Positions 36,233 through 59,688 are shown, counted from the stretch's first letter. The stretch is DNA of 64,000 bases from a virus (IMGVR_UViG_3300037455_000099:1383-65382); one strand, 5' to 3'. Notes: a model not told the origin generated them from the letters alone. Numbers and translations: made by a program.

Positions 36233-36258
36233 CGCATAATTTTCATGTTGTATAATGG
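36233..36258 (+). promoter_or_regulatory. phage promoter motif P3
   Basis: CGCATAATTTTCATGTTGTATAATGG. Confidence 0.8.
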
Positions 36259-36312
36259 AGTAGTAAAGTGCTGCTCCCTAGAAACTTTTATATTTCATGG
36301 AGGTACATTATT

Positions 36313-36729
36313 ATGGGTATTTTTGGTAAAAGAATTGTTAAGAAAGACGGAAGCGAAACAAACGTTAAGGCTTCAACAAGAGCTGAGATTCTCGACGAGA
36401 TCGGAGCAGAACTTGAAGAAACTGGTAACGAGATTATTGTAGACCTTACAAATGGTATCGCGATGGATGGAGGCTTCGACATGGACAATGTCAAGTACAT
36501 CCCTTACATCAAGAAATACATGATTAAGATCAGCAACCTCGTTAACATGTTCGGAAAGTCTATGAAGATTGAGATCGAGCACACTGAAGCGCTTGAGAAG
36601 GAAATCAGCAAGATGAACGAGAACTTCGCATCTATGAACAACTATCTTAGCAGAATAGCTTTAGCACTGGAAAAACAGAACATAGAAAACAATTGTACTT
36701 TAGTTGATAAAACTAAGAAAGAAAAGTAA
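36313..36729 (+). CDS. early hypothetical protein (P3 cassette)
   Basis: SD GGAGGT; followed by a hairpin. Confidence 0.7.
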   Translation: MGIFGKRIVKKDGSETNVKASTRAEILDEIGAELEETGNEIIVDLTNGIAMDGGFDMDNVKYIPYIKKYMIKISNLVNMFGKSMKIEIEHTEALEKEISKMNENFASMNNYLSRIALALEKQNIENNCTLVDKTKKEK

Positions 36730-36753
36730 TTCAAGCAAAAACTTAAAGGCGAT

Positions 36754-36794
36754 AAGGGCTTCTGAGCAGAAATGTTCGGAGGCTCTTAGCTTTT
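36754..36794 (+). terminator. intrinsic terminator-like hairpin (GAGC-AGAAAT-GTTC core)
   Basis: AAGGGCTTCTGAGC/GTTCGGAGGCTCTT followed by T tract. Confidence 0.7.
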
Positions 36795-36820
36795 CGTTTA
36801 TATTTCAAACACTATAGTGG
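36795..36820 (+). promoter_or_regulatory. phage promoter motif P4
   Basis: CGTTTATATTTCAAACACTATAGTGG. Confidence 0.8.
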
Positions 36821-36834
36821 AAGGAGGTGAAATC

Positions 36835-37083
36835 ATGACAAAGAAGGAAGTAATGGCAATGATTCAGGAACTTGATAATAACTATTGTTCTGAGATTGAG
36901 TTATTACATTCTAATCAAAAAGGTTTAATGCAAATTTGTGAAACGCAAATGATAATCATTAAACAGCAAAGGGAAAGAATGGATAACCTACAAGAGCAGT
37001 TCAATAAGTTATTAGAAGTTGATAAAGCAACCAATGCTAGAATTGATATTCTTGAAGACATGATTAAAAAAATCACCGAATGA
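36835..37083 (+). CDS. coiled-coil small protein (P4 cassette)
   Basis: SD AAGGAGGTG. Confidence 0.7.
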   Translation: MTKKEVMAMIQELDNNYCSEIELLHSNQKGLMQICETQMIIIKQQRERMDNLQEQFNKLLEVDKATNARIDILEDMIKKITE

Positions 37084-37136
37084 AATTGTGAAACAGTACA
37101 TTAGCTAAATAGTTCATGTGCTGTTTCATGTTTATT

Positions 37137-37162
37137 CGCGGTAGATTCAGATCCTTTAATGG
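37137..37162 (+). promoter_or_regulatory. phage promoter motif P5
   Basis: CGCGGTAGATTCAGATCCTTTAATGG. Confidence 0.8.
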
Positions 37163-37201
37163 AAGATATTAACCCTTATATTTTATTAAGGAGGAACTAT
37201 T

Positions 37202-37462
37202 ATGAAAGAATTATATAACAAACTTAACAAAGAAGTAGATAAGGAAATAGCATTATCAATATTAATAGCTATACCAGCATTCATATTTATGTTTGGTTAT
37301 GGTCTTATTGGCGAGTATTTTAAAGCCAAATCAGAACTTGACATGGCAGTAATGTTTAGCTGGGGTGGCATATTATTAGCAATGATGTGGTTACTATTAT
37401 CAGCTATACTTTATGTGGGTGTTGAATTTATTCATGCATTAGCAGACAAAATCTTTGATTAA
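37202..37462 (+). CDS. small 2-TM membrane protein (P5 cassette)
   Basis: SD AAGGAGG; hydrophobic. Confidence 0.7.
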   Translation: MKELYNKLNKEVDKEIALSILIAIPAFIFMFGYGLIGEYFKAKSELDMAVMFSWGGILLAMMWLLLSAILYVGVEFIHALADKIFD

Positions 37463-37514
37463 AAACTAGAGTTAATACTCAGACCAGAGCTCATTCGTGG
37501 GCTCTTGGCTTTTT

Positions 37515-37540
37515 CGCATTATATTCTTATACTATAGTGG
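37515..37540 (+). promoter_or_regulatory. phage promoter motif P6
   Basis: CGCATTATATTCTTATACTATAGTGG. Confidence 0.8.
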
Positions 37541-37555
37541 AAAGGAGGAATCAGT

Positions 37556-37762
37556 ATGAAAGTATTTATGACTATATACTTCATTATTGGATGTCTATAT
37601 TCTATATTTGTTTTAATAGTAGGAATAGCTGCATTCGAGGACGCACCTGACTATGGAAAGCATGTTGCGAAGATCATAATATGCATGTTATTAGAACTTA
37701 TAATATGGCCTATAGAATTTATAGTAATGATAGTAAGTATAATTAAAAAACATATGCACTAA
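37556..37762 (+). CDS. small 2-TM membrane protein (P6 cassette)
   Basis: SD AAAGGAGG; hydrophobic. Confidence 0.7.
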   Translation: MKVFMTIYFIIGCLYSIFVLIVGIAAFEDAPDYGKHVAKIIICMLLELIIWPIEFIVMIVSIIKKHMH

Positions 37763-37802
37763 TTCCAACTAGACACTCTGGCATTCAGGGTGTCTTTAAC
37801 TT

Positions 37803-37828
37803 CGCATAATATTCGCGTCCTATAATGG
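37803..37828 (+). promoter_or_regulatory. phage promoter motif P7
   Basis: CGCATAATATTCGCGTCCTATAATGG. Confidence 0.8.
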
Positions 37829-37840
37829 AGGTGAAGACTC

Positions 37841-38044
37841 GTGAAGATATTTTGGAAAATCTTTAGTATATTAGCTATGATTATTGGCATAATAGTCATG
37901 AGTCCAGCAATAGTTTATTTAGCTATAAATTTCACATGGTTATTTATAGTAATTTTGATCTTTTGCTGGCCAGTAATGATCATTGCCAAAGAAGTAGAAA
38001 TCTATAAGCTAAAGAAAGAAATAAAAACTTTAAAAGGAGAGTGA
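37841..38044 (+). CDS. small membrane protein (P7 cassette)
   Basis: GTG start; SD GGAGGTG begins right after the hexamer. Confidence 0.7.
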   Translation: MKIFWKIFSILAMIIGIIVMSPAIVYLAINFTWLFIVILIFCWPVMIIAKEVEIYKLKKEIKTLKGE

Positions 38045-38074
38045 ACCTATTTGTGAGGAGCTATTACAGTTCCT

Positions 38075-58099: not shown

Positions 58100-58110
58100 A
58101 GGTGTTGTTT

Positions 58111-58317
58111 ATGAAATACAGAACATTTAAAAGAAAAGTAAAGAAGATAAAACCTTTTGCAATAATAGACTGGATACTAACATCTATAGTCACCATAATA
58201 TGTGGAGTTATTGAACTCGTAGCATTATGTAGTGGCGAATGGATTACGGCAGCAGCTATTGTAGCACTTGGTGTATGTTTATTACTTTGTATTAAATGGG
58301 TTATTCCAAACGACTAG
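58111..58317 (+). CDS. small 2-TM protein (P17 cassette)
   Basis: SD GGAGGTG. Confidence 0.7.
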   Translation: MKYRTFKRKVKKIKPFAIIDWILTSIVTIICGVIELVALCSGEWITAAAIVALGVCLLLCIKWVIPND

Positions 58318-58355
58318 AAACTAGGCCCCTTGATATTCAGGGGCTTTTAGTTTTT

Positions 58356-58381
58356 CGTTCAAGAATCATATTCTATTATGG
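58356..58381 (+). promoter_or_regulatory. phage promoter motif P18
   Basis: CGTTCAAGAATCATATTCTATTATGG. Confidence 0.78.
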
Positions 58382-58395
58382 AAGGAGGGATTCTA

Positions 58396-58461
58396 ATGAT
58401 TGATATACTATTAATAATACTTAGTGTTGGTATTGGATATTTATTAGTCAAGAAAGGATGA
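58396..58461 (+). CDS. 21-aa single-TM peptide (P18 cassette)
   Basis: MIDILLIILSVGIGYLLVKKG; SD AAGGAGG. Confidence 0.6.
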   Translation: MIDILLIILSVGIGYLLVKKG

Positions 58462-58499
58462 TCCTAAACTAAAGCTCGCAATCGTGGGCTTTAGTATTT

Positions 58500-58525
58500 C
58501 GCGTAAAATTCACTCCCTTTAATGG
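58500..58525 (+). promoter_or_regulatory. phage promoter motif P19
   Basis: CGCGTAAAATTCACTCCCTTTAATGG. Confidence 0.8.
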
Positions 58526-58554
58526 AAGATAAGTAACTACAACCTTTAAGGAGG

Positions 58555-58773
58555 ATGTTTATTATGAAAAAAGTTATGACTAATATATTTGCAGTAGTAT
58601 TTGCAGTTATGATGATGTTATCTGTAGTATTCATTAGTGCTGGATTTATTGATGCATGTAGCAACAATTGGATCGGCATAATTGAATTCTTTGGAGGCAT
58701 AGCATTATGCGCAGTATTATTCAAAGGATTAGATGGAATGATGGCTTTCATCGATAAGAAATTTGACAAATAA
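58555..58773 (+). CDS. small 2-TM protein (P19 cassette)
   Basis: SD AAGGAGG. Confidence 0.7.
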   Translation: MFIMKKVMTNIFAVVFAVMMMLSVVFISAGFIDACSNNWIGIIEFFGGIALCAVLFKGLDGMMAFIDKKFDK

Positions 58774-58862
58774 GGACAATAGAAACTTATTCAATCTTAA
58801 GGACTCAAATTCAGAGTCTTTGAGATTTTTATCCCCCTTTTTATTTGTTATAGGAGGTTATT

Positions 58863-59045
58863 ATGGAACAAATTAATATTATGTTATTATTTACAGAGAA
58901 ACATCCAGAGTTATTAAAATATATTTCTCACTACGAAATGTTAGACAATAGTGAAGCAATAGAGATACATTACAAGAATGGTGCAATAGAAGTGTGGAGT
59001 TATTATGATGATATGTTTGTAACTGTGAGAGATAGATTATTGTAG
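58863..59045 (+). CDS. small hypothetical protein
   Basis: SD AGGAGGT. Confidence 0.6.
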   Translation: MEQINIMLLFTEKHPELLKYISHYEMLDNSEAIEIHYKNGAIEVWSYYDDMFVTVRDRLL

Positions 59046-59047
59046 TT

Positions 59048-59073
59048 CGCGTGTAATTCATATCCTTTAATGG
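59048..59073 (+). promoter_or_regulatory. phage promoter motif P20
   Basis: CGCGTGTAATTCATATCCTTTAATGG. Confidence 0.8.
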
Positions 59074-59097
59074 AAGATATTAAAAGGAGGAATTATT

Positions 59098-59244
59098 ATG
59101 ATGAATAAAATAAAAACTTTAAGAAATAAATATGTAGAAGAAGAAAACGTAAAGATGTTTTGGATCTGTGATATGATCGCACACATCCCTACAGTTCTAG
59201 CTTTAGCAATTTGTGCAATTATAGTTATTATCGCTATTATCTAA
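59098..59244 (+). CDS. 48-aa peptide with C-terminal TM helix (P20 cassette)
   Basis: MMNKIKTLRNKY...VLALAICAIIVIIAII; SD AAGGAGG. Confidence 0.65.
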   Translation: MMNKIKTLRNKYVEEENVKMFWICDMIAHIPTVLALAICAIIVIIAII

Positions 59245-59334
59245 AATTTTGATATATTTATAATCTTCCAAAACCATTAGGGTTTGAGCCCCCACTCAGA
59301 TCCTTTTGGTTTTTTATTGATTGAGGAACGAAAC

Positions 59335-59360
59335 CGTGTGATATTCTTATTGTGTTATGG
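59335..59360 (+). promoter_or_regulatory. phage promoter motif P21
   Basis: CGTGTGATATTCTTATTGTGTTATGG. Confidence 0.72.
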
Positions 59361-59372
59361 AGGTGAATAGAA

Positions 59373-59540
59373 ATGATTGATTGGTTCTTTGATGAACTCC
59401 CTTATTGGATATTTGAAATAGAGTATTTCATTTGGAAGATGACACTGTATTTCATTAAGTATTTATTAGAAGGAATGTTAGCAATATGGGATGCTTCGAA
59501 AGAATTAATAATTTATATTCGCAACAAAAGTAAAAAATGA
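59373..59540 (+). CDS. 55-aa aromatic/hydrophobic peptide (P21 cassette)
   Basis: MIDWFFDELPYWIFEIEYFIWK...; SD GGAGGTG. Confidence 0.6.
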   Translation: MIDWFFDELPYWIFEIEYFIWKMTLYFIKYLLEGMLAIWDASKELIIYIRNKSKK

Positions 59541-59688
59541 ATTTGTTTAGCAACATGAGATTAATTTCTTGTGTTGTTAAACTTTTCAAATACTTTTAAT
59601 TTTTTATTTTATTTATAACTTTATATTAAAATTAATTTTAAAAAAGAATTTAGAAATTAAAAGTTTTATTTTTCTTCTAAAAATAATT

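Follow-up and report, generated by a model that had tools for sequence, protein, structure and literature searches.

Promoter/hairpin cassettes carrying small membrane-peptide genes as probable units of exchange in the early region of an IMG/VR virus genome

The early and replication half of the virus genome IMGVR_UViG_3300037455_000099 is most likely a chain of autonomous units, exchanged whole by homologous recombination between copies of a promoter/hairpin element. The window analyzed here is the 64,000-nt stretch formed by bases 1383-65382 of this 65,382-bp IMG/VR virus record (rated 100% complete). Each unit holds a conserved promoter-like motif, a strong ribosome-binding site, one short gene (usually for a membrane peptide of one or two helices) and a stable hairpin, the T-rich tail of which runs into the next promoter. 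At every gene boundary the dispersed promoter/hairpin copies present a near-identical stretch of 30-70 nt, and homologous recombination between them could delete, insert, replace and re-order units, leaving genes and expression signals intact. Catalysis may come from the single-stranded DNA (ssDNA)-binding/annealing protein and the nuclease-like protein of the phage, which would be tolerant of short homology. The outcome would be a collinear replication backbone interleaved with fast-turnover accessory micro-genes.

The promoter-like motif and the composite intergenic element

A 38-nt promoter-like motif (TTCGC, 9 nt, TCA, 5 nt, CTWTAATGG) was searched first by regular expression and then with a weight matrix built from 13 copies (cut-off of at least 8 bits). 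Over the whole window the matrix found 22 sites, all on the + strand and between 35,949 and 59,683, with none on the - strand and none in 1-35,900 or 59,800-64,000. Forty shuffled controls gave a mean of 0.05 sites and a maximum of 1. A strong Shine-Dalgarno (SD) sequence, mostly AAGGAGG with a spacing of 7 nt, lies 10-45 nt downstream of each site. A preliminary description of this DNA held that most promoter copies head one small open reading frame (ORF) followed by a hairpin and T tract. This is the case for 17/22 copies, which head a single strong-SD ORF and then a hairpin, the T tracts being modest (3-6 T in 8). Exceptions are copies 35953 and 36127, which head non-coding units, copy 59687, which heads an operon ending in the RNA polymerase gene, and copy 53673, at the head of a run of genes. 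Hairpins of -13 to -25 kcal/mol were found within 95 nt after 18/18 promoter-following ORFs, while 8% of 60 random windows reach that stability. Since the T tail of the hairpin mostly merges with the T-rich 5' edge of the next promoter, the two form one composite intergenic element.

The near-identical leader previously noticed ahead of unrelated ORFs was also found, as a 71-nt block (37134-37204 and 49964-50034) that is 87% identical from the first base of the promoter to the ATG. Promoter and leader have been copied together and placed before an ORF of unrelated sequence. The shared leader (37150-37204, 49981-50024) folds into a hairpin of about -17 kcal/mol in which the -10/start region pairs with the SD; the SD would be sequestered in read-through transcripts and free in transcripts from its own promoter.

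The motif is present, strand-specific and multi-copy, in every relative that was fetched, and promoter 59687, upstream of the RNA polymerase operon, is conserved in the relatives L009, L012 and G001. An exact search of IMG/VR with the strict promoter sub-type gave no match, and a looser pattern gave 19 loci, most with several strand-specific copies. Promoters 49149 and 49965 match paralogs of their own genome at 26/30 positions, compared with 23 and 21 of 30 for the orthologs in a relative with 88% polymerase identity, which hints at gene conversion among the copies.

Junctions and gene order at the promoter copies

Relatives were collected with the DNA polymerase (L005, 78% identity; L006, 73%; L007 and L008, 88%), the RNA polymerase (L009, 81%; L012, 70%) and the 86-aa protein encoded at 37202 (L036 to L039) as anchors, and the early half of the complete 66,962-bp relative G001 (reverse complement of L034+L035) was compared as well. 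The replication backbone is collinear across all relatives. Swaps of ORFs between related genomes had been anticipated, and the comparison revealed gains, losses and re-ordering of whole units at promoter copies. Cassette content and order are not fixed among the relatives; both vary, some positionally stable slots excepted.

L038, which has about 94% aa identity in the flanking proteins, lacks a unit of exactly 288 bp (window 37512-37799), corresponding to promoter 37513, a 68-aa ORF and its hairpin. At the edges of this gap are direct repeats: the 14 nt at the 5' ends of promoters 37513 and 37801, which are near-identical. L038 also has an extra hairpin-promoter-micro-ORF unit (at 1850) after the 38570 gene, at a place where the window neighbours are separated by a hairpin only. 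A window unit of about 290 nt at 59046 is missing in L009, where the upstream gene meets the promoter of the next cassette directly. Conversely, a unit at 7087 of L009 is absent from the window; L009 and G001 carry a 67-68-aa transmembrane (TM) unit that has no counterpart in the window. These are whole-unit insertions and deletions (indels) with junctions at or inside promoter copies. An abrupt junction was found between L036 and L037, two contigs from different samples, which differ at 1 base in 2,157 nt downstream of the promoter of the 86-aa gene and are 23% identical upstream of it. The switch point lies inside the upstream half of the promoter.

Gene order varies too. In the window the 36313-like gene precedes the 86-aa gene; in L036 and L037 the 86-aa gene comes first. 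The order of the 36313-like and 36835-like genes is swapped in L005 (36835 homolog upstream), and the neighbour order of the 36313 homolog differs in L005, L036 and G001. The small non-coding unit precedes the 36313-like gene in the window, but in G001, L006 and L005 it follows that gene. The gene orders recur in independent samples (L009, L010, L011 and G001; L012 and L013; L038 and L039). We also considered the L009 promoter as a hybrid of promoters 59046 and 59333, and dropped the idea, as a hand count of 19/30 vs 16/30 was not decisive.

Variable cassettes and fixed slots

Homologs in G001 were found for 4/18 promoter-headed ORFs and for 28/31 other genes (p=2e-6), and the median GC content is 30.4% in the cassettes vs 39.4% in the backbone (p=9e-5). 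A neighbour-context metric, scoring whether homologous neighbours are kept, did not separate cassettes from backbone genes, being confounded by paralog families and variable neighbours. The slot of 38124 holds an unrelated promoter-headed 69-aa ORF in G001 and L006, and that of 39989 a different TM ORF of 31-35 aa in L006 and L007. The block from 53673 to about 55190 is wholly different from G001, L005 and L008. L009 and G001 lack the 56178 cassette and have its flanking genes directly next to each other; the same two relatives have one unrelated promoter-less gene (176-189 aa) in place of the tandem units at 58072-58827. The 59373 ORF has N-terminal homology to an L009 ORF at 8751, which is also promoter-headed.

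Other cassettes keep their place. The interval between the genes for the DNA polymerase and the ssDNA-binding protein (SSB) contains a promoter-headed single-TM micro-ORF in 5/5 relatives reaching that slot. It is complete and 24-26 aa long in L005 (about 14300-14377), L006 (14347-14427), L008 (5467-5541) and G001 (reverse complement, 16218-16298), and is truncated by the contig in L007 (from about 11720). A Gly...Gly-Leu-Tyr...Lys pattern is present in the peptides of the window and of 4/5 relatives, L005 being more diverged. This tiny TM peptide gene looks like a fixed part of the replication module. The slot after SSB holds a promoter-headed TM ORF of 44-73 aa in L006, L005 and G001, and in L008 a 72-aa homolog of the 50032 product (41% identity). 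The product of 37841 shows 94% aa identity to L038 and its slot is conserved in G001, L005 and L006, and L009 and G001 have retained the 57110 cassette including its promoter (49-53% aa identity).

The idea that cassettes are exchangeable through conserved flanks is upheld for the most part. The indels, the L036/L037 switch and the order changes agree with it, but the polymerase-SSB and after-SSB cassettes are fixed. The former had been regarded as an interruption of a core operon, and this view has to be abandoned, as the cassette is found at the same place in every relative covering the interval. The conserved place and peptide motif indicate that both cassettes are fixed residents rather than recent interruptions.

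The micro-ORFs as genes

The 13 hydrophobic peptides of 21-86 aa listed in the preliminary description all have an existing ORF, and 12/13 contain a hydrophobic 19-mer (Kyte-Doolittle, at least 1.6), which was taken as a potential TM segment. The product of ORF 59373 is aromatic and amphipathic and falls below this cut-off. Better starts are probably 58111 (or 58105), and 58564 instead of 58555. Five of the listed ORFs (38124, 39989, 49195, 58396 and 59098) are shorter than 50 aa and lie below the size limit of the ORF track, as had been stated. Among early-region ORFs of up to 100 aa, a TM segment was found in 10/12 promoter-headed ORFs and in 1/10 others (p=0.002); the corresponding counts in other loci were 36/80 and 25/112 (p=0.001).

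The 37202 product has five homologs (71-81% identity), all of 86 aa. The ratios of nonsynonymous to synonymous substitution rates (dN/dS, Nei-Gojobori) were 0.25-0.33 for 37202, 0.06 for 37841, 0.21 for 57110 and 0.30 for the 23-aa ORF 49195, the last over 22 codons only. By this measure, several cassette peptides are under purifying selection. No match for the cassette peptides was found among PHROG and Pfam families, the 58555 product had no relative among 1.8 billion representatives, and an Atlas search of the cassette peptides returned generic helical-hairpin look-alikes only, nothing usable. Homologs of kept length, dN/dS below 1 and the lack of family matches together suggest real, mostly orphan, small membrane proteins. 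Early in infection these peptides may target the host envelope, superinfection exclusion and host takeover being examples of possible roles; PHROG, Pfam and Atlas gave no family, fold or homolog that points to a takeover, exclusion or anti-defence role. A holin or lysis role of the units is unlikely, given their location in the early region, away from the gene pair for a DUF7211 protein and a 96-aa TM protein (34.8-35.9 kb).

Alternative explanations

The cassettes could instead be vertically inherited residents that diverge very fast, so that apparent replacements are orthologs beyond detection and the promoter repeats are regulatory only. We consider this improbable. It is true that small hydrophobic peptides quickly lose detectable similarity, that some same-slot ORFs have no BLAST match (e.g. 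window vs G001) and that the polymerase-SSB and post-SSB slots hold a promoter-headed TM ORF in every covering relative. However, presence or absence of a whole unit at 94% flanking identity cannot be divergence, the 86-aa gene is found in different neighbourhoods, and the L036/L037 switch is abrupt and inside the promoter. It is quite improbable that numerous micro-ORFs, above all in the 21-43-aa range, are untranslated and that their units make short non-coding RNAs or act as insulators, with hydrophobicity as a by-product of AT-rich DNA. A near-consensus SD at optimal spacing stands before almost every micro-ORF, the ORF fills the promoter-to-hairpin interval, dN/dS is below 1 wherever a homolog exists (the 23-aa ORF included), and TM segments are enriched also relative to the remaining small ORFs of this genome. 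Nevertheless, two promoter copies clearly head non-coding units, the cassette DNA has 24-40% GC, which favors Ile/Phe/Leu/Lys codons, and ORFs 58396 (21 aa) and 56218 (43 aa) have no homolog. Metagenome assembly might also have produced the shuffling artificially, by chimeric joining at repeated promoters, as the relatives are all assembled contigs and the breakpoints coincide with repeats, where assemblers can mis-join. This seems very improbable to us: the repeats are imperfect and only about 30 nt long, far below the k-mers used (k119-k141 in the contig names), and the same gene orders were obtained from independent samples.

Exchange of whole units thus remains the preferred reading, and several observations weigh against it. 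The junctions mapped are a handful, the relatives are all metagenomic contigs, and not all cassettes are mobile, the polymerase-SSB, after-SSB, 37841 and 57110 slots being positionally stable. Missing BLAST hits for tiny hydrophobic peptides can mean divergence and not replacement, and the low GC of the cassettes may come partly from the codons of hydrophobic residues. Promoter and terminator activity is predicted from sequence; the motif has a good -10 and no canonical -35, and the T tracts of the hairpins are weak for intrinsic terminators.

Which polymerase may read the motif

We infer that the motif would fire as an early promoter and that the hairpins would attenuate read-through. The -10 is TATAAT-like. 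At the -35 position (16-18-nt spacer) there is a T-rich stretch with the first bases of the TTCGC element, not TTGACA, and the motif fits the sigma-70 consensus in its -10 and not in its -35. A generic sigma-70 scan showed no excess (63 sites vs 60.9 expected). The host enzyme is favored as the reader by the perfect -10 and by the motif copy upstream of the phage polymerase operon. Room for a phage enzyme is left by the missing -35 and by a related motif in a phage of a very different host. This related motif of Faecalibacterium phage FP_oengus, together with a quite different host GC content, fits polymerase-linked rather than host-linked promoter specificity. In a more far-reaching version, which we regard as doubtful, the motif would be read by the phage's own single-subunit YonO-like RNA polymerase and not by a host sigma factor, giving a host-independent expression-and-recombination platform whose promoter-peptide units are exchanged between co-infecting phages in an integron-like, recombinase-free manner. 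If this were true, excised promoter-peptide units could move between co-infecting phages of a widespread gut and rumen clade, and membrane micro-peptides for phage-phage and phage-host conflict would be exchanged as in integrons, without a recombinase.

Cassettes along the early region

All the features described here are on the + strand. At 35953..36230, two promoter copies detected by the weight matrix (35953, 12.5 bits; 36127, 36.0 bits) head hairpin-ended units in which the only ORF has 24 aa and a weak SD; there is no credible SD-led ORF. TATGAGA-ended promoter copies with short non-coding units are located at 36127-36230 in the window, 4649-4727 in the reverse complement of G001, 2608-2686 in L006 and 3781-3977 in L005. 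In these units a GAGAAGGAT-like 5' end pairs with the 3' end just ahead of the T tract, the interior between them has about 50 to 150 nt, depending on the genome, and the place relative to neighbour genes differs.

A run of cassettes follows. The first (36231..36791) has promoter 36231, ORF 36313-36729 (138 aa, not TM) and hairpin 36748-36791, and the next (36793..37129) has promoter 36793, ORF 36835-37083 (82 aa, not TM) and hairpin 37088-37129. The cassette of the 86-aa gene (37135..37510) comprises promoter 37135 with a 67-nt leader, ORF 37202-37462 (2 TM) and hairpin 37481-37510. It is followed by promoter 37513, ORF 37556-37762 (68 aa, 2 TM) and hairpin 37771-37795 (37513..37795), by promoter 37801, ORF 37841-38044 (67 aa, TM) and hairpin 38052-38078 (37801..38078), and by promoter 38073, ORF 38124-38243 (39 aa, 1 TM) and hairpin 38273-38316 (38073..38316). 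A longer gene occupies 38531..39058 (promoter 38531, ORF 38570-39016 of 148 aa, hairpin 39017-39058), and a cassette between two DUF6353 genes lies at 39942..40154 (promoter 39942, ORF 39989-40114 of 41 aa with 1 TM, hairpin 40121-40154). A second class of intergenic unit, without a promoter copy, consists of a hairpin, a conserved T-rich stretch and a AGGAAAGGA-type SD (38297-38335, 39042-39080 and 40137-40175). As these hairpins precede the backbone genes 38345, 39089 and 40185, they must allow read-through.

In the replication module, the fixed cassette of the polymerase-SSB interval (49149..49326) has promoter 49149, ORF 49195-49266 (23 aa, 1 TM) and hairpin 49284-49326, and the slot-conserved cassette after the ssDNA-binding gene (49965..50293) has promoter 49965, the leader, ORF 50032-50250 (72 aa, TM) and hairpin 50253-50293. 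Promoter 53673, with ORF 53742-54113 (123 aa) and hairpin 54132-54166 (53673..54166), heads the block that extends to about 55190. A weak promoter copy at 56178 precedes ORF 56218-56349 (43 aa, not TM) and hairpin 56353-56395 (56178..56395), and promoter 57069 precedes ORF 57110-57328 (72 aa, 2 TM) and hairpin 57345-57380 (57069..57380). Three tandem cassettes, each with its own hairpin, are found within 58072..58827: promoter 58072 with ORF 58111-58317 (68 aa, TM), promoter 58354 with ORF 58396-58461 (21 aa, TM) and promoter 58498 with ORF 58564-58773 (about 69 aa, TM). Then come promoter 59046, ORF 59098-59244 (48 aa, 1 TM) and hairpin 59270-59313 (59046..59313), and promoter 59333, ORF 59373-59540 (55 aa, hydrophobic and aromatic) and hairpin 59545-59582 (59333..59582). 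The last promoter copy heads an operon (59687..63627) made up of 59821-60177, 60105-60668 (DUF2800, nuclease-like) and the gene for a 977-aa RNA polymerase.

Genome context

Every gene of the window is on the + strand. The structural genes (portal, capsid protease/major head and others) occupy 1-35 kb, and the early and replication genes 36-60 kb, including those for a 1,414-aa primase-polymerase, a Phage_ssDNA_bind/SSAP-like protein and a helicase. The genome is closed by the 977-aa YonO/RdRP-like RNA polymerase with helix-turn-helix (HTH) domains (60694-63627); its HTH matches lie at residues 103-128 and 938-974, and some of them are sigma-70 region-4 models. The sequence stops about 300-370 nt past this gene in the window and in the contigs of four independent relatives (L009, L012, L013 and G001), which suggests a fixed genome end. 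No match to a tyrosine or serine recombinase (PF00589, PF00239; integrase or resolvase) was found in the complete genome. A DUF2800 nuclease-like gene and a Phage_ssDNA_bind/SSAP-like gene are both encoded.

The nearest named phage is FP_oengus (NC_047916), with 47% polymerase identity. Ours is probably a virulent 65-kb gut or rumen phage related to it. The polymerase gene had no near-identical DNA match among GenBank phages, a pattern-based locus search using the ssDNA-binding protein gave nothing, and no part of the window matched Rfam. The gene pair for the DUF7211 protein and the 96-aa TM protein, which closes the structural module, is single-copy in the window (34845-35954); in L036 (583-2265) the pair, at the end of the structural module and with a DUF7211 protein of 177 aa, is tandemly duplicated. 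A small-ORF stretch inside the structural region contains several dispersed repeats of 20-42 nt (8357-8915) and a 9-nt tandem repeat of eight copies or so (8931-9002).

Comparison with known systems

The cassettes provide a dozen or so early membrane micro-peptides, either conserved or of fast turnover, as candidates for superinfection exclusion, host takeover or counter-defence; several fall below the usual limits of gene calling. They also offer a compact toolkit of promoter, ribosome-binding site and hairpin for hosts that are hard to engineer. In the cultured relative FP_oengus, at least 10 small early ORFs are likewise preceded by a hairpin with a GAAA loop and T tract, followed by a motif that ends in CTTTATGGA. 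These hairpin-plus-promoter units of FP_oengus (L040, NC_047916) are at 1900-8300 and 27260, and a limited literature check found no mention of them in publications on that lineage. The FP_oengus motif differs from ours in the upstream half and in -10 spacing, and FP_oengus is temperate, with a tyrosine integrase.

Integron cassettes are promoter-less and are moved by the integron integrase through site-specific recombination at attC. The array described here resembles them in its small single-gene units, with imperfect inverted repeats between them and a high turnover. However, every unit has its own promoter, and the junctions are at the promoter and not at the hairpin. An integron-like site-specific mechanism was rejected because the genome has no recombinase of either family (no PF00589/PF00239 match).

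Morons, a concept of Hendrix and colleagues, are accessory genes with their own promoter and terminator, carried by tailed phages such as the lambdoid ones. In the classic case they are scattered, each is different from the others, and their expression is from the prophage. Like them, our units consist of a single accessory gene with its own predicted promoter and terminator, placed between genes that are adjacent in a relative (window 37513, 56178 and 59046; L009 7087; L038 1850), and their base composition is unlike that of the neighbours (30.4% vs 39.4% GC, to which codon bias may contribute). The units fit the structural definition of morons. They differ in being many, with one promoter family, in the early lytic region of a genome without integrase. 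Prophage expression is not predicted for them, given this location and the lack of an integrase or resolvase.

The promoter-early stem-loop (PeSL) cassettes of T4-type phages are composite promoter/stem-loop elements at ORFan boundaries (Arbiol et al. 2010, PMC2839356; Comeau et al. 2014, PMC4122927). Recombination between PeSL copies removes or adds whole units, so that an ORF lies between two copies where a relative has a single copy (PMC2839356). The elements of the window are likewise dispersed, combine promoter and stem-loop at gene boundaries, mostly upstream of ORFans, and include a few copies inside the replication module, beside the DNA polymerase. Motif copies mark the edges of indels and replacements between related genomes (window vs L009 and L038; L036 vs L037), and an ORF is found between two motif copies where the relative has one. 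The lineage, however, is unrelated (FP_oengus-like, with a Bacillota-type host) and there is no sequence similarity. Here the -10 is TATAAT-like without a sigma-70 -35, the stem-loop precedes the promoter and its T tail is continuous with the promoter edge, and the cargo is mostly membrane peptides of 21-86 aa. PeSLs are also characterized by measured promoter and terminator activity and by excised mini-circles; the promoters and terminators of the present cassettes are predicted ones. They are not members of the T4 PeSL family, and have the same kind of architecture and behaviour. Shuffling of promoter-terminator cassettes is documented mainly in T4-type phages of Gram-negative hosts. Here the same cassette logic has evolved independently in a gut and rumen lineage that is abundant and little studied, which suggests that exchange of accessory genes by this route, with no dedicated recombinase, is open to phages in general.

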